The notes under the pieces are model-generated. The model was given only the letters and a program-made list of their open reading frames with translations, ran no database searches and was not told the origin of the DNA. A stretch of DNA of 64,000 bases, taken from NCBI RefSeq assembly GCF_018350175.1, contig NC_058368.1, positions 85,934,001 to 85,998,000 of the forward strand, given 5' to 3'. A program made the position numbers and the translations under genes. This document shows, in pieces, positions 2,201 through 35,549 of the stretch (positions within the stretch are counted from its first letter, which is position 1; the number at the start of each line of letters is the position of its first letter). The stretch is from Felis catus (lineage: Eukaryota).

Positions 2201-2260
2201 AACCTGTAGAAATTTTAGTTTGACTCTGTAACTTATTTGTGTTTTTTTTTCTTCTTAAAG

Positions 2261-2281
2261 GTAAACTCCAGGAAAAATATG
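2261..2281 (+). CDS. 21-nt phase-1 heptad micro-exon A1 of butyrophilin/ERMAP-like gene: (x)KLQEKY
   Basis: Polypyrimidine tract ...cttcttaaAG|GTAAACTCCAGGAAAAATATG|GTAAGT. Consensus donor, 21 nt, frame-preserving, and resembles butyrophilin-family heptad exons. Confidence 0.8.
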
Positions 2282-3988
2282 GTAAGTCATTTATTACCTC
2301 CTTATATTTATCAGATTTAGCACAGTACCTAGAGCTCAGGGGTTTCTTCTTTTTTAAGCATAAATTTCCAAGGAAAACAGTCAGTAAAAATAGAAGGAAA
2401 TAAATACCAATTAGGAATCTGGCATTGTGTATTCCCTTCCCCTTTGTCTTCATTAGCTTGTTCAAGTGTCCATGACCTCTGTTGGGTCATTGTGCTTATA
2501 AACCCTTGAGGTTTGCCAAGGTATCTTTGATTCTACAGAGAGGACACGCTGGTTAATACCTGGGCAAAGTAGAAAAGCAAGGTCTGCAGCAAACCCACCA
2601 GGAATCCTGAACAAGCACATGGCACTACATTTCAAAGCAGAGCACAGCCTGGTCCATAATCCAATTGTCTACTAAAGTTAGCTATTCTCACTTTGTGTTG
2701 GTTAGATTGCAGTGTCCCTCTTACTTGCTAATCTGCTTTCACTGGAATTGAGAAAAGGGAGCTTGTGTCAAATGCACCTGTGGAACCTTTTTTCTCTTCT
2801 GCATTTTCAAAACATCCTCATGTATTGAGGATTCTTTCTAGCCTCCTGACCCCCTCACATTTTAAAATCTTTTCTCATGTGCTGCAGATGAGTTTCCAAG
2901 GTATGAATTGGTGTTTGTATTACCGTCAGTGTATGCCCCCTTTAAAGTGTCAGGGAAAAAAGTTCGTCTCTCTATGCAAAGAATTCTTCTTGGCATGAGC
3001 GATGAAGACTGAGTCACTGTTTCAGGTTATTCCTGACTCTGGATATATTCCGCACCCAAAGGCTCATGGATCCTGTCCCAGTCTCTTGAGGCACAGATCC
3101 CATGTGTAATCTCGATGAACTTTTTTGGGGGAATAGCCTATCATGAGCTCCACACAATCAACAGGTGGAGGGGCATGGACTGATTTATTTCTTATACACA
3201 AGACCTGCTTCTTTTCCCCTCTTCTCTAGCTCTTATTTTCACCTATTGCTAAATATCATACCAAGTCAGGCAAGAAAGACTTGAGTAAAATCTGTTTCTT
3301 TAGAAATTCTTCCATACATGCTTTATTGAATGCATTATTATTTATCTTGGTTTTACACAGAACTCTTATTTAAACAGAAAGGAGAGTAGTTTTTGTTTCC
3401 ATTTAGAGGCAAACATCATAGAAAAATATACTCGATCAACTAAAATTTAGCAAACGATTTCCACATCATAAACATTTTGTTCAACTGGCCTACTTCTATA
3501 AGATTAGCTACCAGTTGAAACTATGTTGTGTTTGGTAACACTATAAATTATAGGCTGTGAAACCAATTGTCATTTAAACAAAGTCACACTGTGGCATCTT
3601 TGTTGGAAGATTTCACCTGTGTTTAAATATTTGTTTTTAAGGTCCCAGGAAAGTATTGAGATATTCCTTTATGATGTTTTCTACTATGACTTCTATAATG
3701 CATGTCCATATCTCAATTTTGAACTTCTCCTGGGTTTCTGCTAATTCTTGACTTCTTTGTTATTAAATAGTTATTAATGATAACTTGTACATTCTATGGT
3801 AAGATGACAACCAAAATATCACAGTCTAGTTTTGGTTCGTTGAAAGTCTTTACATTTTTCTGCATTATATGTCAAACTGTTAAATATGATTTGCATAAGC
3901 TTTGATATTCTGTATCCATATTTTATGTTTTTGTTTTGATTTTTGATTTTTTTTTTACCTTTTGACCTTGTTACTTAAGAGAGCGTTA

Positions 3989-4425
3989 GTTTTTTTTTTT
4001 CTTTTTAAGATTTTTTAACGTTTATTTATTTTTGAGACAGAGAGAGACAGAGCATGAACGGGGGAGGGTCAGAGAGAGAGGGAGACACAGAATCTGAAAC
4101 AGGCTCCAGGCTCTGAGCGGTCAGCACAGAGCCCGATGCGGGGCTCGAACTCATGGACCGCGAGATCATGACCTGAGCTGAAGTCGGACGCTTAACCGAC
4201 TGAGCCACCCAGGCGCCCCAATTTTTTAATATTCATTTAATTTCATTTGAGAGAAATCATAAGAGAGAAGGGGAGGGGCAGAGAAAGAGGGATAGAACGG
4301 ATCTCAAGCAGGCTCTGTGCTGTGAGTGCAGAGCTATGGGAACTCTAACTCACAGACCGTGAGATCATGTCCTGAGCTGAAGTCCAGAGTCAGATGCTCA
4401 AGTGACTGAGCTGCCAAGGTGCCCT
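3989..4425 (-). mobile_element. Two adjacent CanSINEs (young 3989-4219, older 4221-4425); also at ~16168-16603 and ~28346-28781
   Basis: Reverse complement of the GGGGCGCCTGGGTGGCTCAGTCGGTTAAGCG head, (CT)n tract and A tail. Confidence 0.95.
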
Positions 4426-5170
4426 AGGCGCATGCTTCTTAGTGATTTTATCTCTGTGTCTTTGTACTTGTTTTTCTCTATTCCTGAAATACTTTATTTC
4501 TGTGCTCATGTCACAATTAACTCTGCTTTCCCTGTGGGAACTTGGTGAACGATCACGACCACAGAGAGGGATCTGAGTACTTTATGGAATCCCACAGCCA
4601 TGAGATCTCTCGTTACTGCTTTACATGGTGCTTTGTGCAGGTGACAGGTCAGAGTTCTGTGTCCTCCTTTACTGAGAGAGCCTGATCCCTGCAGAGCTAA
4701 GGGCGGCCAGTCCACAAATATCTGTTGAGTGGAAGAAATGATTTTTATTCATATTTTTTTGTCATTTTCTGTTTGTTTTCCTCCTTGTTTATCTATATTA
4801 TATAAGAAAAGAGAACAAGAGTTCTATTGCTATCCTGTTCGATGGCTTAAAGATCACATAATACCTAACTTGTACAGAATCACTTAGGTGAAAATTAATC
4901 TCTTACATTGACTTCTTCTCATATTTTTCTGAACCTCATGTCTTTGGACATACACCTCTGGACCAGGTGAAGCAAAGTGAAGAATCCTGTCCTGGAGCTG
5001 CCAGTAATGGGCTTGCCCAGGAGACTTCCAGTTAGGCTCTACGTGACATCAAGACAACCATGTGGAGGGTGGATTTCTTATCCCATGCAAGGATACAAAT
5101 GGGGGTGGGAGTTGGGAGGAGGTACTGTCCAGGAAACATACTATATTATTGCTTACTTAAGACACTTCTC

Positions 5171-5375
5171 GGGGCGCCTGGGTGGCTCAAGTCCCTTGGG
5201 CATCTGACATCGACTCAGGTCCTGATCACAGGGTTTGTGAGTGGGAGCCCTGATTCAGGCTCTGTGCTGACAGGTTGGAGACTGTAGCCTGCTTCAGATT
5301 CTGTGTCCCTCTCCCTCTGCCCTTTCCTCGCTTGCACTCTCTCCTCTGCCTCTCTCTCTCCAAAATAAATAAACC
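5171..5375 (+). mobile_element. CanSINE; also at 17349-17553 and 29527-29731
   Basis: GGGGCGCCTGGGTGGCTCA head, CT-rich tract, AAATAAATAAA tail, ACTTCTC on both flanks. Confidence 0.93.
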
Positions 5376-6245
5376 TTTTTCTTTTTAAATAATGTAACTT
5401 CTCAAAACAGGCCTAGGGAAATCATTTGCTGACTCCTTGAAATACCAAAAAAAAAAAAAAGTTACTGTTTTGTGTTTGAGGGTAAAATCCATGAGGCATT
5501 CCATTTCACCCTATGTCTGCTGCCATGTAGAGTTTATTCTGGAGGACAAATCAGCATAAGTTCAGATTAATTTAAGATACAGTTGGGAGGTTTCCACAAC
5601 TGATGACTAAACAGCCTATGGTTAGGACATTTTAAGGTGTGTATCAGGAAACCACCTACCTGTTGCTCAAACTCCAAAACATATGTATTGAATTTTTTTG
5701 GTTGTTCACATTAAGGATTCATTACTTGAGCTGAGTATGGTAAAGATACCACCTTCTCAATGCAAGGTCGGTAAAACATACTGTCATTCTGAGAAAATCC
5801 TCTGTTCTCAGTATTTTTTTTTTCCTTTTCCTTTTCTACTTATCAGTTTCCAGATATTATAAATGATCTTGTGCGAAAATAAGGTACTCAAGGACAGTTT
5901 CAGACTACCTTCTTATCTTGGAAATAATGGGTAAAATTTGTGGGTATTTGCACCTATTTTCCCTAATTTTTGGACCTCACCCAAAAGAGACCTTTTGTAA
6001 TATTCTGTTTTATGTCTATATAAACACATATAAAAGCCAGATAGCTTTTTAGATTGTGTTATTTATTATTATTATTAATATTCAGTACATAAATTGCTCT
6101 TTCTATGTCAGAGAAATATACTGGATCGTCAGCTTTCTGGGTCTCAGTTTTCAAATGAGAACCAAGTTCCAGGACAGATTTTCCATTGACAGTGATAGGA
6201 GGACACTTTCTAACAGACTTTTGTTTTGTTTGTTTCTTTATATAG

Positions 6246-6266
6246 CAAAACTAGAAGAAGAGAACG
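6246..6266 (+). CDS. 21-nt phase-1 heptad micro-exon B1: (A)KLEEEN
   Basis: ttctttatatAG|CAAAACTAGAAGAAGAGAACG|GTACGT. Length and both splice sites are conserved in the diverged paralog at 59791-59811. Confidence 0.8.
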
Positions 6267-6786
6267 GTACGTCCTATTTAGTTTTCAACATTCCACCCTT
6301 GATGTTCTTTCATTTTAATAAAACAACAAAATACAGACATTGCATTTATGACCCAAACGCGTTTAGAAGCAGGTAATGTATCCTTCTGCTATTTTTTAAA
6401 ACGTAACCTAAGTATTCCTAAGACAAGGAATGATGTAGGCCTAAATGGAGAAGAATGCGATGCATCATGTGGTGAGTTCAGGGCTGGGACTCAGGTGTTA
6501 AATCTGCCCCATTCAGTGAGGGCGGTCATCCTTTCTGCATATAGTAATTAGCTACCTATTTCATACTCAGTTCTTAAGAAACACTGAGGGAAAAAGACTC
6601 TCTTTGCTATGCAACTTGCTACCTTACGACAGATGCAAATTCCACATTCAAATAATAAAAGTAAAACAAATATGGAATATGTTATAGAAAAGGATTCTTG
6701 ATGCTATGAAGACATAAAATAGAGTGGACTTATTCATGGGATTGTGGATTTGCTGAAAAGCAGCAATGAAGATGAGGCAAGTGGTA

Positions 6787-9700
6787 TTTCTTTAATATGA
6801 AATTTATTATCAAATTGGTTCCCATACAACACCCAGTGTTCATCCCAACAAGTACCCTCCTCAATGCCCATCACCCAATTTCACCGCCCTCCAACCCCCC
6901 ATCAACCCTCAGTTTATCCTCAGTTTTTAACAGCCTCTTATGGCTTGCCTTCCTCCCTTTCTAACTTTTTTCCCCTTCCCCTCACCCCCCCCCAATAGTC
7001 TTCTGTTACGTATCTCAGGAACCACATAAGAGTGAAAACATATGGCATCTGTCTTTCTCTGTATGACTTATTTCACTTAGCCTAACAGTATCCAGTTCCA
7101 TCCACATTGCTAAAAAAGGCCATATTTCATTCCTTCTCATTGCCACGTAGTATTCCATTGTATATAGAAACCACAACTTCTTTATCCATTCATCAGTTGA
7201 TGGACGTTTAGTCTCTTTCCATAATTTGGCTATTGTTGAAAGTGATGCTATAAACATGGGGGTAGAAGTGTCCCTATGCATCAGCACCCCTGTGTCCCTT
7301 GGATAAATTTCTAGGAATGCTATTGCTGGGTATAGAGTAGATCTATTTTTAATGTTTTGAGGAACCTCCACACTGTTTTCCAGAGAGGTTGTACCAGTTT
7401 GCATTTCCACCAACAGGGCAAGAGGGTCCCCGTTTCTCCACATCCTCTCCAGCATCTATAGTCTCCTGATTTGTTCATTTAGGCCACTCTGGCAGGCATG
7501 AGGTGATATCTCACTGTAGTTTTGATTTGTATTTAAATGATGATTACTGACTTTGAGCATCTTTTCATGTGTCTGATGGCCACCTAGATGTCTTCTTTAG
7601 AAAAGTGTCTAATCATGTCTTCTGTCTATTTCCTCACTGGATTATTTGCTTCTCAGGTGTGGAATTTGGTGAGTTTTTTTTTTTTTTTTTAATATAGATT
7701 TTAGATACTAGCCCTTTATCCTATAAGTCATTTGCAAATATCTTTTTCCCACTCCATAGGTTGCCCTTTGTGGTTTTGATTTGTATTTCCCTGATGAGGA
7801 GTGACATTGAGCATCTTTTCATGTGCCTGTTGGCCATCTGGATGTCTCTTTTAGAGAAGTGTCTATTAATGTCTTCTTCCCATTTCTTCACTGGATTATT
7901 TGTTTTTCGGGTGTGGAGTATGGTGAGTTCTTTATAGATATTGGAGACTAGCCCTTTGTCCGATGTGTCATTTGGAAATATCTTTTCCCGTTCCGTTGGT
8001 TGCCTTTTAGTTTTGCTGATTGTCTCCTTTGCAGTGCAGAAGGTATTCGTCTTCCTGAGGTCCCAATAGTCATTTTTTTTGCTTTTAATTCCCTTGCCTT
8101 TGGAGATGTGTCAAGTAAGAAATTGTTGAGGCTGAGGTCGGAGAAGCTTTTTCCTGCTTTCTCCTCTAGGGGTTTGATGGTTCCCTGCTGAACATTCAGG
8201 TCCTTCATCCATTTTCAATTTATTATTGTGAATAGTGTAAGAAAGTGTTCAGTTTCATCCTTCTGTATGTTGCTGTCCAGTTTTCCCAACACCATTTGTT
8301 AAAGAGACTGCCTTTCTTTAATTGGAGATTCCTTCCTGCTTTGTCAAAGATTAGTTGGCCATACTTTTGTGGGTCCAATTCTGGAGTCTCTAATATATTC
8401 CATTGGTGTATGTGTCTGTTATTGTGCCAATACCATGCTGTCTTGATGATTACAGCTTTGCATTGGAGGCTAAAGTCTGGGATTGTGATGCCTCCCACTT
8501 TGGTCTGCTTCTTAAATATTACTTAGGTTATTCCAGGTCTCTTGTGGTTCCCTACAAATTTTAGGATTCCTTGTTCTAGCTTAGAGAACAATGTTGGCGT
8601 AATTTTCATTGGGATTTCATTGAATGTGTGGATTGATTTGGGTAGTATCGACATTTTAACAATATTTATTCTTCCAATCCATGAACACGGAATGTTTTTC
8701 CATTTCTTTGTATATTCTTCAATTTCCTTCAAGAGCTTTCTACACTTTTCAGCATACAGACCTTTCACATTTTTTGGTGAGGTTTATTCCTAGGTATTTT
8801 ACGATTCTTGTAATTTTGAATGGGATAAGTTTCATTCTTTGTCTTTCCGTTACTTCATTTTTAATGTATAATAATGCAACTTATTTCTGTACATTGATTT
8901 TTTTTATCCTGCGACTTTGCTGAATTAATGTATCAGTTCTAGCAGGCTTTTGGTGGAGTCTATTAGGTTTTCCATGTCATCTGCAAAAAGTGAAAGCGTG
9001 ACTTCATCTTTGCCTTTTTTTATGACTTTGATTCCTTTTGTTGTCTGATTGCTGATGCTGGAACTTCCAACACCATATTAAACAAGAGCGGTGAGAGTAG
9101 ATATCCCTGACGTGTTCCTGATCTCAGGGAGGAAGCTCTCAGTTTTCCCCCATTGAGGATGTTATTAGCTCTGGGTTTTTGGTAATTGCCTTTTATGATG
9201 TTTAAGTATGTTCCTTCTATCCGACTTTCTCGAGGGTTTTTATTAAGAAAGGATGCTGAATTTTGTCAAATGCTTTTTCTGCATCGATTGACAGGATCAT
9301 ATGGTTCTTTTCTTTTCATTTATTAATGTGATGTATCACATTGATTGATTTGAGAATGTTGAGCCAGCCCTGCAGTCCAGGAATGAATCCCACTTGATCG
9401 TGGTGGATAATATTTTTTATATGCTGTTGAATTTGGTTTGCTAGTATCTTGTTGAGAATTTTTGCATGCATATTCAATAGGAATTTTGGCCTCTAGTTCT
9501 CTTTTATTGCTGGGTCTCAGTCTGTCTTGGGGATCAAAGTAATGCTGGCTTCATAGAATGAGTCTGGAAGTTTTCCTTCTCTTTCTATATTTTTGAAAAT
9601 CTTGAGAAGGATAGGTATTATCTCTACGTTAAATGACTTGTAGAATTCCCCAGGGAAGACTTCTGGCCCTGGACTCTTATTTGTTGGGAGATTTTAGATA

Positions 9701-11321
9701 ACTGATTCAATTTATTCGCTGGTTATGGGTCTTTTCAAGTTTTCTAGTTCGTCCTGTTTGAGTTTGGGAAGTGTGTGGGTGCGTAGGAATGTGTCCGTTT
9801 CTTCCAGCTTGTCCAGTTTGTTGGCATATAGTTTTTTTGTAGTATTCCCTGATAATTGCTTGTATTTCTGAGGGATTGGTTATAATAGTTCAATTTTAAT
9901 TAATGATTTTATCTATTTGGGTCTTCTCCCTTTTCTTTTTGAGATGTGTGGCTAGAGGTTTATCAATTGTTCATTTTTCAGAAAATATACTCTTGGTTTC
10001 ATTGATCTACTACAGTTTTTTTTTTTTTTTTTAGATTCTATATAGTTTATTTCTGCTGTGATTTTTATTTCTCTTCTTCTTCTGGGTTTGGGTGTCTTTG
10101 CTGTTCTGCTTCTATTTCCTTTAGGTCTGCTGTTAGATTTTGTATGTGGGATTTTTCTTGTTTCTTGGGAAAGGCCTGGATTGCAATGTGTTTTCCTATC
10201 AGGACTGCCTCTGCTGTATCCCAAAAACTGTTGGATTGTTGTATTTTCATTTTAATTTGTTTCCATACATTTTTAATTTCTTCTCTAATTGCCTGGTTGA
10301 CACATTCATTCTTTAGTAGGGTGTTCTTTAACCACCATGATTTTAGAGGTTTTCCAGGCTTTTTCCTGTAGTTGATTTCAAGTTTCATAGCATTGTCCTC
10401 TGAAAGTGTGCATGATATGTTCTCAATTCTTTATACTTATTAAGGGCTGATTTGTGTCCCGGTATGTGATCTATCTTGGAAAATGTTCCATGTGCACTGG
10501 AGAAGAAAGTATATTTTGTCACTTTGGGATGCAGAGTTCTAAATATATCTGCCAAGTCCATCTGACCCAATGTATCATTCAGGGCTCTTGTTTCTTTGTT
10601 GATCCTGGTAGAGATGATCTATTCATTGTTGTATGTGGGGTATTAAAGACCCTGCAGTTACCACATTCTTATCATTAAAGTTGCTTATGTTTGTGATTAA
10701 TTGTTTTATATATTTGGGGGTTTCTGTATTCGGCGCATAGACATTTATGATTGTTAGCTCTTCCTGATGGATAGACTCTGTAATAATTATATAATGACCT
10801 TCTTCATTTCTTGTTACAGCCTTTAATTTAAAGTCTAGTTTGTCTGATATAATTATGGCTACTCCAGCTTTCTTTTGACTTCCAGGGGCATGATAAATAG
10901 TTCTCCATCACCCACTTTCAATCTGAAAGCGTTCCCAGGTCTGAAATGAGTCTCTTATGGACAACAAATAGATGAGTCTTGTTTTTTATCCATTCTGACA
11001 CCCTATGACTTTTGACTGGAGCATTCATTCCATTTACATTAAGTGTTATTATTCAGTGTTAAAGATATGGGTTTGGAGTCATTGTGATGTCTGTAGGTTT
11101 CATGCTTGCAGTGATGTCTCTGGTACCGTGTGGTGCTTACAACATTTCACTCACAGAGTCCCCCTTAGAATCTCTTGTAGGGCTGGTTTAGTGTGATGAA
11201 TTCTTTCAGTTTTTGTTTGTTTGGGAAAACCTTTATCTCTCCTATTCTGAATGACAGCCTTGTTGAATAAAGGATTCTGGGCTGCATTTTTTTTTTCCCT
11301 ACTGATCACATTGTAGAATTC
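6787..11321 (-). mobile_element. Carnivore LINE-1: 3'UTR, disrupted ORF2 and ORF1 end; 5' part missing
   Basis: ORF2 peptides in the ORF track (KWKNIPCSWIGRINIVKMSILPK, YTFFSSAHGTFSKIDH, WFLYTMEYY); 3' tail at ~6790; many frameshifts. Confidence 0.96.
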
Positions 11322-13595
11322 ATGTTGGTGGCATAAATATTTACAACTGTGAGATCTACTTGTTGGATAGACCACGTCACTTTGATATAGTATCCTTTGT
11401 CATTTCTTGTTACTGTCTTTGGTTTAATGTCTACTCTGCCTGAGATAAGTATTGCTACTCTGGCTTTCTTTCCACAGGCATTGGCGTGATAAGTATTTAT
11501 CCCTCTGTCCCTTCCCATTCAATCTGCAGGCATTGTGAGGTCTTAAATGAGTCTCTTATAGACAGCATGTAGAAAGGTCTTGTTTTTTTTTTCCTCTATT
11601 GTTTTTGTTTTTATTCTTTACTGATACTATATGTCTTTTGATTGGAGCACATCCTACACTTACATTCAGAATAAATCTATATACAGGTATATACATGTAT
11701 TTAGTGTCATTTTAATACTTGTTTTGTTGTCTCACCTGGATGTGTTCTCTTATCCTTTTTGTTTGTCACTTTTTTTCTTCCTTCCCACTTAAACAGTCCC
11801 CTTTAATATTGTGCACAGGGCTGGTGTAGTGGACATAAAGGTTCAGCTCCTTTAGTTTTTGTTTCTCTTGGAAAGTCTTTATCTGCTTCTGTTCTATATG
11901 ATAACCTTGTTGTATAGAGTATACTAGGTGATGAGTTTCCCCGTCAGGACATTGAATACACCATGGCTTACCAAGTTTCTGTCGAGAGATCTGCAGCCAA
12001 CCTTGTGGTTCTTCCCTTGTAATGTAGGCAATTCTTTTCTTTCTTGCTAATTGGATGTTTGTTCTTTGTCAGAATATTTTACACATTTAACTACAATATT
12101 TTGGGTTTAGGTCTGCTTTGGTGGATTTCTGTGGGAGTTTTCTGTGCCTCCTGGATTCGGATGGCTGTTTCACTCCCCAGATTTGGGAAGTGTTAGCCTA
12201 TTATTTATGTAGACTACCCTTATGTTCCCTTTTATGTCTCTTCTTCTGCAACTCTGGTGATACAAATTTAAGTTTCATAGATACACTGAGTTTCCTAAGT
12301 CTATTTTCAGGCTTCCCTGAAGACTTCTTTTATTTTTTCAAGCAGAGCAGGAATCTTATGATGGCTGCTTTAAATTCTCCATCTGGTATAGTACTTTTCT
12401 TGGTTTTACATAAACCTCTGGCTTTTATCTTATATTCTTTCATTTCAGAGGGTTCCTCAGTCCTGGCATTGTCTATACATCTTTCTGTCTTCTTATTGGT
12501 GTTCGGAAAGCCTGTTTCATTTCCTGCTCCTTAGAGTAGTTGCGTTATGAAGACGAGGTCAAATGGTGTCCAGGTCCTGATGCTTTAAAGAGTGTCTCTC
12601 GAGTGACCTACATACACTAGGCTCCTGTGTTTTGGCTGCACTGCCTTTCAGGCCAGGCATCTTCAAAGGTTGTCCTTGCCTGCTGGTGCAGTGCTTGAAC
12701 CTTGGTGAGAGTGTGGCAAATTTTATGTAGGTGTGCTCTGGTGTACAATTCAATGAGACTCATGTGGTTTCCACTAGGACTGAAGCCTTGCAGAACAAAG
12801 AGTTTGGGAGACGTGGTTGACAGCATTTCTGCTCATCACCTGAGGAAGAAGACTGCCTGGCTGGGACTGAGACACACTTGACAGAGAAGGGGAATAGTCA
12901 TTGAACACAGGGCTGTGGACTTGCTGTAAGCAGGAGAGGCAGCCAGTCTCAGCACTGTGTACTTCCTAAACATCCTTCTCTGTCTTTTCTGAAAGTATGG
13001 GGGAGTGTAGTGTCACCAACCAACTTCTTTGTCTCCAGTTGAGGGGTTATTGCATCTTTTGAGAAGCACTCTCAGAGGAGCATTGAAAGTCCCCCTTTGT
13101 GCCTCCAGTGTTGGTGTGTTTCAGATCCTCATCTTCATGCTGTCTGTGTCTAAGTTGTTTGCCTGACTTTCAGCCAGGAGCATTGCAGTGCCTGCTGGCC
13201 TCCATCCCAGCCAGGCACGCTGATCTTTAAACCTCCAGACTTTAAGCCCTGTTCATCAAAAGGCCTCAAGGAAATCAACCCCTCTGCTTGTCCCAGCCAA
13301 TGGCTTTTAAGAAGTGTCCATCTCATTCATTCCACTGTGTACTCCTAGAACTTTTTGTGTTTCTCTGCAACCAAGATCGTCTCCCCTCCATAGCACCTAG
13401 GAAACATGTGGCCCCAAACCACATCTCTGCATTTCCTACTATCCTTGATGTGTCCTCTTTCCTCCCTCAAGGATGAGCTTGTTTTATCAGTACTCAAGAT
13501 TAATTCTTGGGTACTGAGAATGATTTGACAGTTTTCTAGTGTGTTTGAGGAAGGAGAAAAACCTAGGGTCCTCCTACTATGCAACCACCTCAGCT
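11322..13595 (-). mobile_element. Older LINE-1 fragment (endonuclease start, ORF1, 5'UTR), copy 2
   Basis: Endonuclease-like peptide YHANACGKKARVAILISGRVDIKPKTVTRNDKGYYI at 11306-11518, followed by decayed ORF1/5'UTR. Confidence 0.85.
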
Positions 13596-14439: not shown

Positions 14440-14460
14440 GTAAACTCCAGGAAAAATATG
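14440..14460 (+). CDS. 21-nt heptad micro-exon A2: (G)KLQEKY
   Basis: Identical copy of 2261-2281 with AG/GTAAGT sites. Confidence 0.78.
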
Positions 14461-18423: not shown

Positions 18424-18444
18424 CAAAACTAGAAGAAGAGAACG
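18424..18444 (+). CDS. 21-nt heptad micro-exon B2: (A)KLEEEN
   Basis: Identical copy of 6246-6266 with AG/GTACGT sites. Confidence 0.78.
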
Positions 18445-23499: not shown

Positions 23500-25773
23500 A
23501 TGTTGGTGGCATAAATATTTACAACTGTGAGATCTACTTGTTGGATAGACCACGTCACTTTGATATAGTATCCTTTGTCATTTCTTGTTACTGTCTTTGG
23601 TTTAATGTCTACTCTGCCTGAGATAAGTATTGCTACTCTGGCTTTCTTTCCACAGGCATTGGCGTGATAAGTATTTATCCCTCTGTCCCTTCCCATTCAA
23701 TCTGCAGGCATTGTGAGGTCTTAAATGAGTCTCTTATAGACAGCATGTAGAAAGGTCTTGTTTTTTTTTTCCTCTATTGTTTTTGTTTTTATTCTTTACT
23801 GATACTATATGTCTTTTGATTGGAGCACATCCTACACTTACATTCAGAATAAATCTATATACAGGTATATACATGTATTTAGTGTCATTTTAATACTTGT
23901 TTTGTTGTCTCACCTGGATGTGTTCTCTTATCCTTTTTGTTTGTCACTTTTTTTCTTCCTTCCCACTTAAACAGTCCCCTTTAATATTGTGCACAGGGCT
24001 GGTGTAGTGGACATAAAGGTTCAGCTCCTTTAGTTTTTGTTTCTCTTGGAAAGTCTTTATCTGCTTCTGTTCTATATGATAACCTTGTTGTATAGAGTAT
24101 ACTAGGTGATGAGTTTCCCCGTCAGGACATTGAATACACCATGGCTTACCAAGTTTCTGTCGAGAGATCTGCAGCCAACCTTGTGGTTCTTCCCTTGTAA
24201 TGTAGGCAATTCTTTTCTTTCTTGCTAATTGGATGTTTGTTCTTTGTCAGAATATTTTACACATTTAACTACAATATTTTGGGTTTAGGTCTGCTTTGGT
24301 GGATTTCTGTGGGAGTTTTCTGTGCCTCCTGGATTCGGATGGCTGTTTCACTCCCCAGATTTGGGAAGTGTTAGCCTATTATTTATGTAGACTACCCTTA
24401 TGTTCCCTTTTATGTCTCTTCTTCTGCAACTCTGGTGATACAAATTTAAGTTTCATAGATACACTGAGTTTCCTAAGTCTATTTTCAGGCTTCCCTGAAG
24501 ACTTCTTTTATTTTTTCAAGCAGAGCAGGAATCTTATGATGGCTGCTTTAAATTCTCCATCTGGTATAGTACTTTTCTTGGTTTTACATAAACCTCTGGC
24601 TTTTATCTTATATTCTTTCATTTCAGAGGGTTCCTCAGTCCTGGCATTGTCTATACATCTTTCTGTCTTCTTATTGGTGTTCGGAAAGCCTGTTTCATTT
24701 CCTGCTCCTTAGAGTAGTTGCGTTATGAAGACGAGGTCAAATGGTGTCCAGGTCCTGATGCTTTAAAGAGTGTCTCTCGAGTGACCTACATACACTAGGC
24801 TCCTGTGTTTTGGCTGCACTGCCTTTCAGGCCAGGCATCTTCAAAGGTTGTCCTTGCCTGCTGGTGCAGTGCTTGAACCTTGGTGAGAGTGTGGCAAATT
24901 TTATGTAGGTGTGCTCTGGTGTACAATTCAATGAGACTCATGTGGTTTCCACTAGGACTGAAGCCTTGCAGAACAAAGAGTTTGGGAGACGTGGTTGACA
25001 GCATTTCTGCTCATCACCTGAGGAAGAAGACTGCCTGGCTGGGACTGAGACACACTTGACAGAGAAGGGGAATAGTCATTGAACACAGGGCTGTGGACTT
25101 GCTGTAAGCAGGAGAGGCAGCCAGTCTCAGCACTGTGTACTTCCTAAACATCCTTCTCTGTCTTTTCTGAAAGTATGGGGGAGTGTAGTGTCACCAACCA
25201 ACTTCTTTGTCTCCAGTTGAGGGGTTATTGCATCTTTTGAGAAGCACTCTCAGAGGAGCATTGAAAGTCCCCCTTTGTGCCTCCAGTGTTGGTGTGTTTC
25301 AGATCCTCATCTTCATGCTGTCTGTGTCTAAGTTGTTTGCCTGACTTTCAGCCAGGAGCATTGCAGTGCCTGCTGGCCTCCATCCCAGCCAGGCACGCTG
25401 ATCTTTAAACCTCCAGACTTTAAGCCCTGTTCATCAAAAGGCCTCAAGGAAATCAACCCCTCTGCTTGTCCCAGCCAATGGCTTTTAAGAAGTGTCCATC
25501 TCATTCATTCCACTGTGTACTCCTAGAACTTTTTGTGTTTCTCTGCAACCAAGATCGTCTCCCCTCCATAGCACCTAGGAAACATGTGGCCCCAAACCAC
25601 ATCTCTGCATTTCCTACTATCCTTGATGTGTCCTCTTTCCTCCCTCAAGGATGAGCTTGTTTTATCAGTACTCAAGATTAATTCTTGGGTACTGAGAATG
25701 ATTTGACAGTTTTCTAGTGTGTTTGAGGAAGGAGAAAAACCTAGGGTCCTCCTACTATGCAACCACCTCAGCT
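23500..25773 (-). mobile_element. Older LINE-1 fragment, copy 3
   Basis: Duplicate of 11322-13595. Confidence 0.85.
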
Positions 25774-26617
25774 CTGAAGCAGTTGACCTTGACAAGGAGG
25801 GAAAAGTTCGTTATCAGCTTCTTGGATTTATAGCATAATATTCCATAGTATAATATTCTTGTGTTGTATAAATAGGGTAATAGTATAATCTGTCATAGTA
25901 GAACATAAAGCTATGGCAAGGAAATGGTACTTTTACTGGGACTAAAGTAGACAGAGGGATCAATACAAGAGAAATGAAACTGCAAAAAGAGTTCCACATT
26001 TGTACGGTGAATAAATCAATGACAAAGGAAGCAAGAAAATGTAATGGGAAAAATGCCCCTTCATTAAATGATGTTGAGAACACTGGTCACAGATATTTAC
26101 AAAATATTGATATTTGACCACTTTCCCACCATATGCTATAGTAAACTCATAATGGGTGAAAACATAAATCTAAGATATGAAGTATAAAACCTTTAAATAA
26201 AACCTAAGAAGTAAGTTCTTTGGCAACCTCCTGAGCAATATTTACTTGAAACTGGTTCCTCAGACAAGGATAGAAAAAACAGTAACAAATTATTCGGACT
26301 ATCTCAAAATAAAGGCTTTTTTCTTTCCCCCAAGCAAAGAACACCATTAAAAAATGAAAACCTAGTGACAGGGAATAGAAAATTGCAATCATAAATGTGT
26401 TAAGGGACTAACATCCAAAAAATATAGTCAAATCATTCAATTCAATATCAAAACCTCAAACAGCCCAACTTAAAAATGTAGAAAATCTAGGATTAGATTT
26501 TTCAAGAAAATAAATAAATAAACATACATATGGCCCACAGTCCCATGAAAATATTTTAACCTGTAGAAATTTTAGTTTGACTCTGTAACTTATTTGTGTT
26601 TTTTTTTCTTCTTAAAG

Positions 26618-26638
26618 GTAAACTCCAGGAAAAATATG
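26618..26638 (+). CDS. 21-nt heptad micro-exon A3: (G)KLQEKY
   Basis: Identical copy of 2261-2281 with intact splice sites. Confidence 0.8.
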
Positions 26639-29600
26639 GTAAGTCATTTATTACCTCCTTATATTTATCAGATTTAGCACAGTACCTAGAGCTCAGGGGT
26701 TTCTTCTTTTTTAAGCATAAATTTCCAAGGAAAACAGTCAGTAAAAATAGAAGGAAATAAATACCAATTAGGAATCTGGCATTGTGTATTCCCTTCCCCT
26801 TTGTCTTCATTAGCTTGTTCAAGTGTCCATGACCTCTGTTGGGTCATTGTGCTTATAAACCCTTGAGGTTTGCCAAGGTATCTTTGATTCTACAGAGAGG
26901 ACACGCTGGTTAATACCTGGGCAAAGTAGAAAAGCAAGGTCTGCAGCAAACCCACCAGGAATCCTGAACAAGCACATGGCACTACATTTCAAAGCAGAGC
27001 ACAGCCTGGTCCATAATCCAATTGTCTACTAAAGTTAGCTATTCTCACTTTGTGTTGGTTAGATTGCAGTGTCCCTCTTACTTGCTAATCTGCTTTCACT
27101 GGAATTGAGAAAAGGGAGCTTGTGTCAAATGCACCTGTGGAACCTTTTTTCTCTTCTGCATTTTCAAAACATCCTCATGTATTGAGGATTCTTTCTAGCC
27201 TCCTGACCCCCTCACATTTTAAAATCTTTTCTCATGTGCTGCAGATGAGTTTCCAAGGTATGAATTGGTGTTTGTATTACCGTCAGTGTATGCCCCCTTT
27301 AAAGTGTCAGGGAAAAAAGTTCGTCTCTCTATGCAAAGAATTCTTCTTGGCATGAGCGATGAAGACTGAGTCACTGTTTCAGGTTATTCCTGACTCTGGA
27401 TATATTCCGCACCCAAAGGCTCATGGATCCTGTCCCAGTCTCTTGAGGCACAGATCCCATGTGTAATCTCGATGAACTTTTTTGGGGGAATAGCCTATCA
27501 TGAGCTCCACACAATCAACAGGTGGAGGGGCATGGACTGATTTATTTCTTATACACAAGACCTGCTTCTTTTCCCCTCTTCTCTAGCTCTTATTTTCACC
27601 TATTGCTAAATATCATACCAAGTCAGGCAAGAAAGACTTGAGTAAAATCTGTTTCTTTAGAAATTCTTCCATACATGCTTTATTGAATGCATTATTATTT
27701 ATCTTGGTTTTACACAGAACTCTTATTTAAACAGAAAGGAGAGTAGTTTTTGTTTCCATTTAGAGGCAAACATCATAGAAAAATATACTCGATCAACTAA
27801 AATTTAGCAAACGATTTCCACATCATAAACATTTTGTTCAACTGGCCTACTTCTATAAGATTAGCTACCAGTTGAAACTATGTTGTGTTTGGTAACACTA
27901 TAAATTATAGGCTGTGAAACCAATTGTCATTTAAACAAAGTCACACTGTGGCATCTTTGTTGGAAGATTTCACCTGTGTTTAAATATTTGTTTTTAAGGT
28001 CCCAGGAAAGTATTGAGATATTCCTTTATGATGTTTTCTACTATGACTTCTATAATGCATGTCCATATCTCAATTTTGAACTTCTCCTGGGTTTCTGCTA
28101 ATTCTTGACTTCTTTGTTATTAAATAGTTATTAATGATAACTTGTACATTCTATGGTAAGATGACAACCAAAATATCACAGTCTAGTTTTGGTTCGTTGA
28201 AAGTCTTTACATTTTTCTGCATTATATGTCAAACTGTTAAATATGATTTGCATAAGCTTTGATATTCTGTATCCATATTTTATGTTTTTGTTTTGATTTT
28301 TGATTTTTTTTTTACCTTTTGACCTTGTTACTTAAGAGAGCGTTAGTTTTTTTTTTCTTTTTAAGATTTTTTAACGTTTATTTATTTTTGAGACAGAGAG
28401 AGACAGAGCATGAACGGGGGAGGGTCAGAGAGAGAGGGAGACACAGAATCTGAAACAGGCTCCAGGCTCTGAGCGGTCAGCACAGAGCCCGATGCGGGGC
28501 TCGAACTCATGGACCGCGAGATCATGACCTGAGCTGAAGTCGGACGCTTAACCGACTGAGCCACCCAGGCGCCCCAATTTTTTAATATTCATTTAATTTC
28601 ATTTGAGAGAAATCATAAGAGAGAAGGGGAGGGGCAGAGAAAGAGGGATAGAACGGATCTCAAGCAGGCTCTGTGCTGTGAGTGCAGAGCTATGGGAACT
28701 CTAACTCACAGACCGTGAGATCATGTCCTGAGCTGAAGTCCAGAGTCAGATGCTCAAGTGACTGAGCTGCCAAGGTGCCCTAGGCGCATGCTTCTTAGTG
28801 ATTTTATCTCTGTGTCTTTGTACTTGTTTTTCTCTATTCCTGAAATACTTTATTTCTGTGCTCATGTCACAATTAACTCTGCTTTCCCTGTGGGAACTTG
28901 GTGAACGATCACGACCACAGAGAGGGATCTGAGTACTTTATGGAATCCCACAGCCATGAGATCTCTCGTTACTGCTTTACATGGTGCTTTGTGCAGGTGA
29001 CAGGTCAGAGTTCTGTGTCCTCCTTTACTGAGAGAGCCTGATCCCTGCAGAGCTAAGGGCGGCCAGTCCACAAATATCTGTTGAGTGGAAGAAATGATTT
29101 TTATTCATATTTTTTTGTCATTTTCTGTTTGTTTTCCTCCTTGTTTATCTATATTATATAAGAAAAGAGAACAAGAGTTCTATTGCTATCCTGTTCGATG
29201 GCTTAAAGATCACATAATACCTAACTTGTACAGAATCACTTAGGTGAAAATTAATCTCTTACATTGACTTCTTCTCATATTTTTCTGAACCTCATGTCTT
29301 TGGACATACACCTCTGGACCAGGTGAAGCAAAGTGAAGAATCCTGTCCTGGAGCTGCCAGTAATGGGCTTGCCCAGGAGACTTCCAGTTAGGCTCTACGT
29401 GACATCAAGACAACCATGTGGAGGGTGGATTTCTTATCCCATGCAAGGATACAAATGGGGGTGGGAGTTGGGAGGAGGTACTGTCCAGGAAACATACTAT
29501 ATTATTGCTTACTTAAGACACTTCTCGGGGCGCCTGGGTGGCTCAAGTCCCTTGGGCATCTGACATCGACTCAGGTCCTGATCACAGGGTTTGTGAGTGG

Positions 29601-30601
29601 GAGCCCTGATTCAGGCTCTGTGCTGACAGGTTGGAGACTGTAGCCTGCTTCAGATTCTGTGTCCCTCTCCCTCTGCCCTTTCCTCGCTTGCACTCTCTCC
29701 TCTGCCTCTCTCTCTCCAAAATAAATAAACCTTTTTCTTTTTAAATAATGTAACTTCTCAAAACAGGCCTAGGGAAATCATTTGCTGACTCCTTGAAATA
29801 CCAAAAAAAAAAAAAAAGTTACTGTTTTGTGTTTGAGGGTAAAATCCATGAGGCATTCCATTTCACCCTATGTCTGCTGCCATGTAGAGTTTATTCTGGA
29901 GGACAAATCAGCATAAGTTCAGATTAATTTAAGATACAGTTGGGAGGTTTCCACAACTGATGACTAAACAGCCTATGGTTAGGACATTTTAAGGTGTGTA
30001 TCAGGAAACCACCTACCTGTTGCTCAAACTCCAAAACATATGTATTGAATTTTTTTGGTTGTTCACATTAAGGATTCATTACTTGAGCTGAGTATGGTAA
30101 AGATACCACCTTCTCAATGCAAGGTCGGTAAAACATACTGTCATTCTGAGAAAATCCTCTGTTCTCAGTATTTTTTTTTCCTTTTCCTTTTCTACTTATC
30201 AGTTTCCAGATATTATAAATGATCTTGTGCGAAAATAAGGTACTCAAGGACAGTTTCAGACTACCTTCTTATCTTGGAAATAATGGGTAAAATTTGTGGG
30301 TATTTGCACCTATTTTCCCTAATTTTTGGACCTCACCCAAAAGAGACCTTTTGTAATATTCTGTTTTATGTCTATATAAACACATATAAAAGCCAGATAG
30401 CTTTTTAGATTGTGTTATTTATTATTATTATTAATATTCAGTACATAAATTGCTCTTTCTATGTCAGAGAAATATACTGGATCGTCAGCTTTCTGGGTCT
30501 CAGTTTTCAAATGAGAACCAAGTTCCAGGACAGATTTTCCATTGACAGTGATAGGAGGACACTTTCTAACAGACTTTTGTTTTGTTTGTTTCTTTATATA
30601 G

Positions 30602-30622
30602 CAAAACTAGAAGAAGAGAACG
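30602..30622 (+). CDS. 21-nt heptad micro-exon B3: (A)KLEEEN
   Basis: Identical copy of 6246-6266 with intact splice sites. Confidence 0.82.
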
Positions 30623-31143
30623 GTACGTCCTATTTAGTTTTCAACATTCCACCCTTGATGTTCTTTCATTTTAATAAAACAACAAAATACAGACATTGCA
30701 TTTATGACCCAAACGCGTTTAGAAGCAGGTAATGTATCCTTCTGCTATTTTTTAAAACGTAACCTAAGTATTCCTAAGACAAGCAATGATGTAGGCCTAA
30801 ATGGAGAAGAATGGGATGTATCATGTGGTGAGTTCAGGGCTGGGACTCAGGTGTTAAATCTGCCCCATTCAGTGAGGGCAGTCATCCTTTCTGCATATAG
30901 TAATTAGCTACCTATTTCATAATCAGTTCTTTAGAAACACTGAGGAAAAAAGACTCTCTTTTGCTATGGAACTTGCTACCTTAGGACAGATGCAAATTCC
31001 ACATTCAAATAATAAAGGTAAAACAAATATGGAATATGTTATAGAAAAGGATTCATGATGCTATGAACACATAAAACAGTGTGGACTTATTCATGGGATT
31101 GTGGATTTGCTGAAAAGCAGCAATGAAGATGAGGCAAGTGGTA

Positions 31144-32180
31144 TTTCTTTAATATGAAATTTATTATCAAATTGGTTCCCATACAACACCCAGGAAATTC
31201 CTTGAGTTTCTTTTCAGGAAAATTCTTCTGTTTCATCATTTTGGGGTCCCTGTGGTAGCTCCAAACTACAGGGCACTTCCCCTGTGCTGTTCTAAGAAAC
31301 TTGTGTTGGTGGGTGGGGCCACAGCAAGACCTGATGCCTGCTGACAGACCACCGTGGGGGCCACAGTCAGACTGGTGTGTAGTTTATCTTCCCCTCTCCT
31401 AAGGCCCAGACTCACTGTGAAGTGATGTGGCCCCTGTCTGGGGTGCTTGCACAGTGCCAGGCATGTGGGGCTGCTTCCATGGGATCTGGCCAAGGGCATA
31501 TTAGACGGTGGATCTGCCAGTGCCCAGGGGTGAGAGGGTTCGGCTTAGGTAGATTTGCCTTAGGTGGTCCCCTGCTGGAGGAGCCCTGCAGCACAGGGAG
31601 GGAGGCAGGCCTGTTTGTTGGAAGGATGGATCCACAGAAGCACAGCTTTGGCATTTGCGAGGTGCAAGCAAGTTCAGTGATGGGAACAAGTTCCCTTTGT
31701 AATTTCACCTGGGGGATGGGAGAGGGAAATGGCGGTTGCCAACACCTTTGTTCCCCCACTGAGCTCTGTCCTTCTGGAGTTCAACAACTCTCCCTCCCAG
31801 CATCCTCTCGACCTCCCTACTCTCTAAGAGCAGAGCTATTGACTTTTCACATTCCAGATGTTAAGTCCCGTTGGCTGTCAGAATTCATGGAGTCTGGCCC
31901 CCCTGATTTTGCAAGCCAGACTTTGTGGGCTCTGCCTTGCATGATGGGCTGCCCCTCCACCACCTGTATCCCTCCCACCAGTCCATGTAGCATGCATCGT
32001 CTCTCTGCCTTTCTTACTCTCTTCAGTGGGCCTCTCGTCTAAGCTTGGCTCTGGAGTGTCCATTCTTCTAGTGTTCTGGCAGTGTTGTGGGTTATTTAGG
32101 CAGATGTGGGTGGAATCTTAGCGATCAGCAGGAAAAGATGAGCCCAGTGTCCTCCTATGTTGCCATCTTCCGAAGATGTC
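31144..32180 (-). mobile_element. Internally deleted LINE-1: ~50 bp of 3' end fused to ORF1 start and GC-rich 5'UTR
   Basis: Same 3' junction as the L1 at 6787 up to ...CAACACCCAG (31193). It then switches to ORF1-start-like sequence (TTCTGTTTCATCATTTTGG) and 5'UTR, ending near GCCATCTT at ~32169. Confidence 0.85.
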
Positions 32181-32564
32181 CCTAGATCTTCAAGGCTAGA
32201 GTTATTAAAGAGGGGAGGTATAGAGGTATGCTTTCAAGGCTAGAGGTATATTTCAAGGGGAGGAATAGTATGTGCAAAGCACAAAGCACAACATGCATTA
32301 AACTCTGGGGGGGTGGGGGAGGATGAGCCCAGGATACTATTAGAGGACACACTATTATCCAGGTGACTCTGGTTCAGACAACCCATACAAGGCTATATGT
32401 AGGCAATGGCTGGGAAATACAGTGTCATTTTCCTTTCTAAGAATTATGAATGCTGTCCAGGAAACATAATTTTGAACATAATCAAGAAAATCAGCAAAAC
32501 ATAGAAATGTTAAACAATAAAGTGGTGTAGTGACAATATTTTCTTTTCAAAAGTGTTATTCTTT

Positions 32565-32772
32565 TTTTTAACATTTATTTATTTTTGAGAGGCAGAGAGA
32601 GACAGAGTTTGAGCATGGGTTGGAGGCAGAGAGAGGCATAGAATCCAAACCAGACTCTAGGCTCTGAGCTGTTAGCACAGAGCCCAACTTGGGACTCAAA
32701 TGCATGAACCACAAGGTCATGATCTGAGCTAAAGCTGGATGCTTAACTGACTGAGCCACACAGGCACCACCC
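32565..32772 (-). mobile_element. CanSINE (shared with paralog at ~60885-61106)
   Basis: SINE consensus on the minus strand; AA(G/A)TGTTATT repeated on both flanks. Confidence 0.92.
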
Positions 32773-32902
32773 AAAATGTTATTTTTTGTTATTTACTTGG
32801 TAAGTAAAGTTTCTCTGTGAGGATAAAAATGTACATATATTAAAAAGAAAAGAAATGTAAACATATTTTAAATCAATCTCTCACTACATCCCATTCTTTC
32901 AG

Positions 32903-32929
32903 AAAGGATAAAACTCCTGGGAAAAGAAG
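32903..32929 (+). CDS. 27-nt phase-1 micro-exon C: (E)RIKLLGKE
   Basis: attctttcAG|AAAGGATAAAACTCCTGGGAAAAGAAG|GTGAGT. Length and splice sites conserved at 61311-61337. Confidence 0.85.
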
Positions 32930-33070
32930 GTGAGTAATGAAAATGACCACCTCCAACCCTGACTCATGCACTTTCCTTTTGATCACACATCTCCTTGCTG
33001 TTTTATTCACTGTTAAATCTTGGATTCAAATCTATACTAATTTATTTATTTATTTATTATTTATATTTAG

Positions 33071-33097
33071 GATTGAAGTATCTTCGACTGTATGCAG
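33071..33097 (+). CDS. 27-nt phase-1 micro-exon D preceding B30.2: (G)LKYLRLYA
   Basis: ttatatttAG|GATTGAAGTATCTTCGACTGTATGCAG|GTAACT. Has the size and xxRLYA-type ending typical of the penultimate exon of B30.2 genes, and splices in frame to 34814. Confidence 0.88.
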
Positions 33098-34329
33098 GTA
33101 ACTAAAGACTAGTATTTGGATATTGATTCTTACTTTTAGCAAGCACACTGTGTCACTCGAGCCTTAACACACTCACCAACTCACACAACACATACAAACT
33201 CATCCCTGTTTTTTTTTTTTTTTCTTCTATAAAATTTCTATTTTGTCATGCTTATTCTTGGGTAGTTCATAGCTACAACTCCTTACATATAGCAAATGGT
33301 GTTGCTCTCTGAGGTACAGTGATGGAAGGAAACAATATTAAAGCCCAAAATGATACTACCAAACATGCTGTTTGGAACCGGAAGTGAGTTGGGGGGCGTT
33401 ACCAGGTAGGTGACAGGGAATGGGGTAAGGACAGGCTGTCATTTAACTATGTTAGAATGGACGCTAGTAACACAATGACACTAATTGCCTATGGACCACA
33501 ATCAGTTGTCCTTCATGTAATTTGTTAAATGGAAAACTCCTACTTACCTAGGATATCTTTTGACTTCTAACAAATTGTCAAACTTATGAAGCTTATTGAA
33601 TATTAGGAAAAATAGCATTTTCATTACATTTTACATATTTGTATTATTTCAAATAAAATATTTTTATTTCATTTCCACACGTACACTGTGAAGAAGAAAA
33701 GTCAGATATTTATACACTATTCCACAAAGAAATGTATAAGTATTCTTAAGAGATTTCTCCAGTCTATATAACTAATTGACATAATCTTCACATTAATTAG
33801 ACAACTTTAGAAGTACATTTACCAATTGGAAAAAGTACAGTCTAGTTATCCAATGCTGCTTTGTAAAAATGTCCATTAACAATTGAGTTGCAATGTCTTT
33901 AAATGCACATAATACTATATTTACAGTGCTAATATGAGTCTTTAGTGATTTTTATATTATATGAATACTGGTAGAACTTTATTTGTGGTTATAGTAAATA
34001 AGTAAAATTTATTTTTGCCTACTGCTATGGCAATTCTTTCATAGCAAAAGTACTTTTAGCCTGTATTAACAGAATACAGGGTAATTGGGTAAATATCTGG
34101 ATCATTTTACCTCCGACTTGTGTGCTTATATGCTTTCACCATTTTACAAATTATTTTTAGATTCATGTATCTGAAAACTTGTACTCATGTGAAGGTACTT
34201 TTAGGAAAAGTAATTCATTAAATCTGCTTAAATTCCAAAGAATGATTTAGGGAAAATTTTAAATTGTCAAAGCATTTAGATTTCAAGCAAAAATAAATAA
34301 TTGTTTCTCATGAATTCATTAACTGAAAA

Positions 34330-34520
34330 AGACAGACCTGGGTGTGAATCCAAACATTGATGGATATTAGTAACCATAGTTGGACAAACTTCTCTAAATC
34401 TTTGTTGTCTCAACTACAAAATGAAAAAAAAAAATCTACAGCTCATTGATGTGTTATGAAAATTATTTATAAATGTGCTTCAAAGAGCCTGAGGCACATA
34501 GTAAGTGTTTGGTGAAACAC
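34330..34520 (+). mobile_element. MIR SINE remnant (paralog ~63540-63720)
   Basis: AGACCTGGGTGTGAATCC...TTGGACAAACTT...GGCACATAGTAAGTG resembles the MIR core. Confidence 0.6.
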
Positions 34521-34813
34521 TGGTCATATTCATAAATTATTTGACTAGAATATATCTGCATTTTTATATACTTATTTTTTCCCATTCTGCATAAATCCTC
34601 ATTTGAAAATGAGTTAAAATTTTTAACTTGAAAGTTAACTGTGTGATTTGATAAATGGAGGTGATATAAAGAGCATGAGTTGAGGGAATGTAGCAGCTAC
34701 ATTTGAAGAAATTAGAGAAAAATCCTAGATAGAGGAAGGACCCTTCTATATTGTGTTAATTATTCTTGATTATTATTGACTATAGCCAAGACTGACAACA
34801 TGTTCTTCCATAG

Positions 34814-35379
34814 AAAATGTTACCCTGGATCAAGACACAGCTCAACCAAATCTCCAAATTACTGAAGACAAGAGAAGGGTGAAGAGAGTCGATATCTTTT
34901 GGGAACTACTCAGAGAAAGGAATCCATTAAATAAGCTATTCCAGGTTTTAGGTCAGCAATTTTTCTTCAAAGGTAGACACTACTGGGAAGTGAGTGTGAA
35001 AAATAAATTAAACTGGACTCTAGGCATTTGTAAAGCTTCTGTCTACAGACAGGGAGAAATCATGCTGTCCCCAGAGACCGGATTCTGGACACTATGCTTT
35101 AAGAGAAGCAATGGCTACCAAGCTCTTGAAAATCCACAGATAACACTTGACCTTAAGGAATCTCCTGAGATTATTGGTATCTTTCTTGATTATGAGGCTG
35201 GGAGAGTCTCCTTTTATAATGTTACAAACCTGTCTCATATCTACACCTATAAAAACTGCTTCAGTGACCCCCTGAGACCATATTTCTGTCCTGGCCCCAA
35301 CGACCAAGGTGAAAATGAATATTCTCTGACCATCCTGCCATTAGGTAATATTAAAAAATCCAGAAGATGTTCTATTTGA
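34814..35379 (+). CDS. Terminal exon encoding a complete B30.2 (PRY-SPRY) domain, butyrophilin/ERMAP-like
   Basis: ttcttccatAG acceptor, phase 1: (E)NVTLDQDTAQPNLQITEDKRRV...GRHYWEV...WTLGICK...GIFLDYEAGRVSFYNVT...PLRPYF...TGA. The frame is uninterrupted and includes ORF 34879-35379. Confidence 0.95.
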
Positions 35380-35505: not shown

Positions 35506-35549
35506 TCTAAAAAAAAACACTTTGATGTTATAAATTACACTTCTAAAAA

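Follow-up and report, generated by a model that had tools for sequence, protein, structure and literature searches.

In the domestic cat (Felis catus), a 12.2-kb tandem repeat lies within a gene that, by its sequence, is a complete butyrophilin-type gene, and it multiplies two 21-nt micro-exons, A and B, which together encode a 14-residue heptad module of the putative cytoplasmic stalk between the membrane and the C-terminal B30.2 domain. The stretch of DNA under analysis, C1:85934001-85998000 (64,000 nucleotides, hereafter the window; negative positions lie upstream of its start), contains the 3′ part of the array and the 3′ end of the gene. The array and its exons are, with high confidence, real. 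The fuller reading, in which the array is real, at least two A-B pairs are spliced in and the stalk is thereby lengthened, is regarded as moderately probable.

The presence of an intragenic repeat of 12.2 kb had been proposed in a preliminary description of this DNA, and it was borne out by self-BLAST, although the array proved to be larger than the window could show. Within the window, a tandem unit of 12,179 bp occurs in 2.56 copies, ending at position 31193, with its 5′ side running past the window edge. Positions 1-19014 matched positions 12180-31193 at 99.895% over 19,017 columns, and positions 1-6836 matched positions 24358-31193 at 99.737%. Tandem Repeats Finder is blind to periods above 500; in its output, a 15-nt small repeat recurred at 1473, 13652 and 25830, that is, 12,179 and 12,178 bases apart. 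When an 801-nt probe around exon A was compared with the assembly, six places were matched at 100% and one at 98%, all on one contig and 12.13 to 12.18 kb apart, and a further, older copy was matched at 79%. When one unit was compared by BLAST with 164 kb of sequence, an initial incomplete copy (unit positions 1939-12178, 99.52% identity), five full copies (99.97-100%, with unit lengths of 12,178-12,182) and a last partial copy (unit positions 1-6835, 99.75%) were observed. The whole array extends over 77,969 bp of the plus strand (window -46775..31193, C1:85887225-85965193), of which positions 1..31193 fall within the window, and it is composed of seven cores and six spacers. Each core (4.9 kb, unit positions 1939-6835) bears exons A and B. 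Each spacer (7.3 kb; 6836..14117 in the window, minus strand) is mostly antisense debris resembling long interspersed nuclear elements (LINEs). The spacer segment 8988-11321 showed 80.7% identity by self-BLAST to 53925-56298, whose frames encode LINE endonuclease domains, and the LINE assignment rests on this match, because a Pfam search of eight spacer open frames gave a single weak RVT_1 match (E 7.6e-4, below the cut-off).

Three copies of exon A lie in the window, all on the plus strand, 21 nt long, of phase 1 and encoding (G)KLQEKY: the fifth of seven at 2261..2281, the sixth at 14440..14460 and the seventh at 26618..26638. They are preceded by a long pyrimidine tract and the acceptor ...cttcttaaag (AAG) and followed by the donor gtaagt. 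The corresponding copies of exon B, also on the plus strand, 21 nt long and of phase 1, encode (A)KLEEEN and lie at 6246..6266 (fifth of seven), 18424..18444 (sixth) and 30602..30622 (seventh), between the acceptor ...ctttatatag (TAG) and the donor gtacgt. The true start of the fifth copy is 6246, one base 3′ of the naive reading (6245). A second AG, 9 nt inside exon B, is the acceptor of an older 12-nt exon, B′ (EEEN); its use in the young copies would remove three residues and break the heptad phase. In all seven A copies and all seven B copies of the array the AG and GT are retained. A third heptad exon is dead in every young unit: the homologs of exon X (LLTEQK) at 3361..3381, 15540-15560 and 27718-27738 (plus strand) keep the acceptor, while the donor GT has become GA.

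Downstream of the array, the plus strand carries exon C (32903..32929, 27 nt, (E)RIKLLGKE), exon D (33071..33097, 27 nt, (G)LKYLRLYA) and the coding part of the last exon (34814..35379), which ends in a TGA at 35377-35379 and encodes a PRY/SPRY (B30.2) domain (PRY, E 6.1e-07; SPRY, E 9.5e-27). Its best solved relatives were the B30.2 domains of pyrin, TRIM21 and BTN2A1. The first AATAAA past the stop (35500..35505, plus strand) is the likely polyadenylation signal. Joining the exons by their coordinates gave the reading set out in the preliminary description, in which the third residue of each heptad is Leu, and the earlier proposal of an in-frame multiplication of two heptad exons by the repeat was upheld. 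Only 42 of the 12,179 bases of a unit are exonic, so that its description as over 99% intron holds. Chance open frames were ruled out as the source of exons A and B, because the same heptads occur in the predicted proteins of felid orthologs.

The host gene spans about 172 kb of the plus strand and comprises leader, IgV, IgC and transmembrane (TM) exons, 19 cytoplasmic micro-exons and the PRY/SPRY last exon. The leader exon (C1:85797515-85797631) is free of stops and 97% identical to its ortholog. The IgV exon (C1:85816703-85817062; V-set PF07686, E 1.4e-13; 89-96% identical to the felid orthologs), the IgC exon (C1:85822464-85822775; butyrophilin Ig-C PF22705, E 5e-26) and the TM exon (window -101441..-101328) are all open. 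The preliminary description had placed the Ig and TM exons outside the window, and inspection of the upstream sequence located all three there, 101 to 117 kb upstream. The intron between the TM exon and the first micro-exon, A′ (window -101327 to -54036), measures 47.3 kb, which is unusually large for the gene family. After the TM exon the micro-exons follow in the order 21, 21, 12, fourteen times 21, 27 and 27 nt (16 of 21 nt, one of 12 nt and two of 27 nt in all), every one of them of phase 1-1 and flanked by AG and GT. When a script concatenated the exons according to their coordinates, the reading frame ran from the TM exon to the stop codon without an internal stop, and 139 residues separated the RKSK basic anchor from the B30.2 domain, about 134 of them contributed by the 19 micro-exons. 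Introns within the array alternate between approximately 3.96 and 8.17 kb.

The identity of the gene was examined by comparison with predicted proteins. The fishing cat protein P0002 (516 amino acids (aa), annotated as “butyrophilin subfamily 2 member A1-like”) matched this locus better than any other in the genome, at 93% for B30.2, 92% for IgV, 90% for IgC and 89% for TM, and the next B30.2 matches were at 78% or lower. Residues 26-500 of the Geoffroy's cat ortholog P0125 aligned with full-length human BTN2A1 (E 2.8e-100), the heptad region of P0125 being collinear with the human juxtamembrane region in the alignment. The domain and exon features of the butyrophilin family are thus present: an IgV exon, a butyrophilin-type IgC exon, a TM exon followed by heptad exons, and a single B30.2 last exon. 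Of the initial assignment as “butyrophilin/ERMAP-like”, the butyrophilin part was substantiated by PF07686, PF22705, the PRY/SPRY domain and the BTN2A1 alignment, whereas the ERMAP part was not. ERMAP shares with the cat gene the IgV, TM, heptad exons and B30.2, and some automatic names of the gene's relatives read “erythroid membrane-associated protein-like”. However, ERMAP is not known to have an IgC domain, only an IgV before the TM segment, and the ERMAP assignment was rejected because the cat gene has an intact, open butyrophilin-type IgC exon.

The predicted product of the repeated exons may form a coiled coil. GKLQEKY-AKLEEEN, the 14-residue module, has a Leu at intervals of seven residues, and the position four residues beyond each Leu is occupied by Tyr and Asn in turn. 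In the heptad register this would place Leu at position d, Tyr or Asn at position a, and Lys at position g facing Glu at position e of the partner helix; Asn at position a is typical of parallel dimers whose helices are in register. Because the exons are 21 nt long and of phase 1-1, and splice sites and flanks do not differ between copies, each unit spliced in would add 14 residues in frame. For the same reason of symmetry, any subset of the exons keeps the frame, and the expected outcome is a single long product or else a series of products that differ by 14 residues. If all seven pairs were included, the 19 micro-exons would form a helical coiled-coil stalk of about 134 residues, probably dimeric, reaching from the membrane to the B30.2 domain; 98 of these encoded residues are a sevenfold repeat of the 14-residue module. 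In three B30.2-bearing felid models in which the stalk residues were counted, there were 36 (jaguar), 50 and 57, as against up to about 134 here, and the predicted cat stalk would be about four times the big-cat length if all copies were spliced in. With a helix rise of about 0.15 nm per residue, the seven modules would add about 15 nm, giving a modelled stalk of about 20 nm, whereas that of the jaguar model would measure about 5 nm. In the AlphaFold2 model of the fishing cat protein P0002 one helix was found (residues 274-312), with a predicted local distance difference test (pLDDT) score of 54-78. The prediction of a two-copy complex of residues 279-345 of the Geoffroy's cat protein P0141 (score 0.19, mark 0.32) speaks neither for nor against a dimer.

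Indirect evidence on the use of the exons comes from the orthologs of other felids. The exon counts were taken from automatic gene predictions, and this is to be set against the proposed splicing together with the points gathered below. The orthologs (P0002 and P0123 of the fishing cat; P0125, P0141 and P0170 of Geoffroy's cat; P0004 of the jaguar; P0169 of the cheetah) share exons A′, X, the 12-nt B′, A, B, C and D, and are 90-93% identical to this gene in B30.2 and 93-98% in IgV. In the jaguar and leopard models A′ X B′ is followed by C D, and the A-B pair is missing. Geoffroy's cat model X1 has one A-B pair followed by C, D and B30.2, and models X2, X3 and X5 of the same species have A B A (GKIEEEN) A, which amounts to about 2.5 to 3 pairs in X2 and X3. 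The order A B A is present in fishing cat X1 (1.5 pairs) and in an Iriomote cat fragment, and fishing cat X2 has A alone. The GKIEEEN exon of Geoffroy's cat is a diverged version of B′; the arrays are thus not built alike. Altogether, the orthologs have between 0 and about 3 A-type heptads after A′, against seven potential A-B pairs here. The junction from exon B to exon A that had been proposed at the outset is therefore present in the models of two felid genera, and the differing numbers of A-B pairs among the species' predicted proteins fit the suggestion that copy number sets the length of the stalk and varies.

Since all copies in the cat array share their splice sites and 4.9 kb of flanking sequence with the copy used in other felids, the spliceosome would be expected to treat them alike. 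The use of at least two A-B pairs in Felis catus messenger RNA (mRNA) appears fairly probable, and the inclusion of all seven appears possible but doubtful. A hint of expression comes from three sequencing runs recorded as RNA (gut metatranscriptome): of the words sampled from the last exon, fractions of 0.99, 0.81 and 0.61 were present in them, although carry-over of DNA into these runs is possible.

A number of observations weigh against the splicing of several pairs. In a rival reading, the array is real but functionally an intronic structural variant. Most of the repeated micro-exons would then be skipped, or transcripts would end within the array through intron read-through and polyadenylation; the main products would have one or few A-B pairs or would lack B30.2, and such an expansion would have no effect on fitness or a slightly deleterious one. 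The cheetah model has A B and then reads through into the intron after B, and the clouded leopard model reads through into the intron after A. Geoffroy's cat X2 and X3 skip the B30.2 exon and have other last exons instead, and fishing cat X2 skips one B-A pair. Candidates for these alternative last exons are found on the plus strand of the window at 40081..40145, which matches the C-terminus of Geoffroy's cat X3 (EEVMVSDLINTD...) but ends earlier here, at a TAA, and at 41797..42018, which matches the C-terminus of X2 (EEGKCQVV...). Neither encodes B30.2, and both begin with GAAGAAG after AG. Felid models that end in introns or are without B30.2 imply that short or B30.2-less products may be common. 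Moreover, no protein with this B30.2 exon at 100% was found in the protein collection searched, the best matches being 93% among proteins of 329-2000 aa and 90% among proteins of 102-328 aa. No full-length Felis catus product of the locus was found in searches of this collection or in look-ups of its clusters. The single Felis catus entry, P0166 (UniRef), is a 159-aa leader-plus-IgV fragment with an IgV identical to the genome exon, and it follows that annotators have produced no full-length model here. The array introns, at 4.0 and 8.2 kb, also contain LINE debris throughout. On the other side, the seven copies share not only their splice sites but 4.9 kb of identical flanks with the copy that is used in other felids, any combination of exons keeps the frame, and more than one A occurs in the models of two genera. 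The intronic variant is considered rather unlikely, and the lengthening of the stalk by at least two spliced pairs is preferred.

The copy number itself was examined through the history of the array. An older core copy lies upstream (window -54087 to -49114), 79-90% identical to the unit, with exons A′ (KLQEEY), a live 21-nt X and the 12-nt B′. When the seven young cores were aligned, 75 of 4,920 columns were variable: 40 were private to copy 1, 12 were private to copy 7 and lay near its 3′ end, 4 had copies 1 and 7 agreeing against copies 2-6, and 19 were at homopolymers or edges. Spacer 1 had two substitutions and spacers 2-6 had none. At least three copies are proven by the sequence itself. 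Seven cores and six spacers with distinct ends and identical inner copies are what unequal crossing-over between two pre-existing cores would be expected to leave, and this is the probable mechanism. According to the proposed sequence of events, the 4.9-kb core (A, dead X and B) would first have been present in at least two nearby copies with the LINE-rich 7.3-kb spacer between them, and unequal crossing-over between these cores would then have multiplied core and spacer together, giving seven cores and six spacers. If neutral sites in mammals change at a rate of about 1e-9 per site and year, the first duplication of the core would be a few million years old.

The inner copies and spacers, 2-6, have no substitution in about 61 kb, and homopolymer lengths alone vary among them. 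Either the amplification is very recent, which at the same rate would make it no older than a few tens of thousands of years, or the copy number depends on the assembly, and this too has to be held against the reading of seven pairs. A stretch of about 61 kb without a substitution would also be expected if the assembler or polisher had set both the copy number and the consensus. In that case two or three distinguishable cores would be real and the five identical inner units over- or under-counted, reads shorter than the identical stretch being unable to fix their number. As the inner copies are identical, ordinary reads cannot settle the inner count, and “seven” is the number given by the assembly. 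Nevertheless, the contig is gap-free, with no N in the 204 kb of assembly sequence inspected, and the unit lengths vary slightly (12,178-12,182), as would be the case for separately assembled copies. At least three sequence types, together with the mosaic 3′ end of the core, point to a real history of recombination and are unlike the product of a simple assembly mistake, and more than one A is also present in the models of other felids. An assembly origin of the number seven is judged quite improbable.

That the gene is decaying in the cat lineage, untranscribed or a unitary pseudogene with its open frames left over, is very improbable: the lack of a full-length annotated Felis catus protein in the collection searched, the stop and frameshift in the B30.2 exon of a neighbouring paralog and the identity of only 93% to the B30.2 of the fishing cat are countered by the open state of all exons inspected and their kept splice sites, by the fast evolution of B30.2 in all felids compared (88-95% between genera), by the similar number of private B30.2 changes in this lineage (6) and in Geoffroy's cat (5), and by the presence of the last exon's words in the runs recorded as RNA, into which DNA may have been carried over.

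The gene is situated in a cluster of butyrophilin-like paralogs at C1 ~85.4-86.3 Mb, on both strands, in which matches to IgV, IgC and B30.2 show 66-78% identity. Each paralog has one homolog of the exon-A flank (C1:85657956 and C1:86183061). Downstream, the tail of another paralog (window 58719-64000, and 64024-64438 past the window's 3′ end) is 77-85% identical to the 3′ part of the core, to exons C and D and to introns of the gene; its B30.2 exon contains an in-frame stop and a frameshift, and this paralog is probably a pseudogene. Between the gene and this paralog lies a decayed endogenous retrovirus with many stops (window 46594-53507, minus strand). Its separate open frames encode Gag_p10, dUTPase, G-patch, RVT_thumb, RNase H and integrase core domains, a set resembling that of betaretroviruses.

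The domain order of the cat gene (IgV, IgC, TM, juxtamembrane heptads and B30.2) is that of human BTN2A1 and of BTN3A1, BTN3A2 and BTN3A3, for which full-length structures are available (e.g., 8zhr). According to PMC10665462, the juxtamembrane coiled coil of human BTN3A and BTN2A1 joins the cytoplasmic B30.2 sensor to the ectodomain that is read by gamma-delta T cells, and models of BTN3A show its juxtamembrane helices as parallel coiled-coil dimers on which pairing and signalling depend. The human region is short (modelled coiled coil, residues 273-312) compared with the up to about 134 residues encoded here. Because pairing and signalling of BTN3A depend on these coiled coils in the models, a change of stalk length in the cat protein could plausibly, if speculatively, alter the coupling of the B30.2 domain to the ectodomain. 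Neither phosphoantigen sensing nor pairing with another butyrophilin is ascribed to the cat protein.

A tail of many 21-nt heptad exons is otherwise a feature of the chicken BG genes. It is in print (PMC4046983 and PMC5938342) that in butyrophilins “a few” heptads precede the B30.2 domain and that chicken BG genes have many 21-nt heptad exons, in line with the preliminary description, which had both kinds of gene build their cytoplasmic coiled coil from such exons. The number in BG is 13-36 exons of 21 nt, encoding the heptads of a presumed coiled coil (PMC4046983), and it varies from gene to gene and from one haplotype to another; unequal crossing-over and variants with intron read-through are also described (PMC4046983 and PMC5938342). 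The 16 exons of 21 nt in the cat gene fall within this range. However, BG proteins have a single IgV and neither IgC nor B30.2, whereas the cat gene has IgC and PRY/SPRY, and BG heptad exons are closely spaced, as against one pair per 12 kb in the cat array. The cat gene is thus BG-like in the predicted design of its tail, yet by every domain test applied to its sequence it is a butyrophilin and not a BG gene. No description of the array was found in the open-access literature on butyrophilin heptad exons, cat copy number or carnivore phylogeny, and the open-access papers found on butyrophilin heptad exons and coiled coils concerned chicken only, as did what was found on butyrophilin copy number in the cat; papers found on the phylogeny of BTNL9, BTNL3 and BTNL8 made no mention of carnivores.

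As annotators seem to be troubled by the locus, the gene may be missing from cat gene sets. If the locus is expressed as its exons allow, felids would offer a ready-made series of stalk lengths. It is further conceivable, though unlikely, that the array is a young and still copy-number-polymorphic “ruler” of the stalk in cats, by which individuals differ in 14-residue steps and the length tunes the coupling between B30.2 and the ectodomain. If this were true, the stalk would reach lengths of up to about 20 nm, similar to chicken BG, while still ending in B30.2, with tuning as in the juxtamembrane region of BTN3A; it would represent a convergent mammalian re-invention of the long BG tail and would provide a natural allelic series for inside-out signalling. 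The locus also illustrates clearly how a large duplication that is nearly all intron can alter a protein in exact structural units when its micro-exons are symmetrical and of phase 1.

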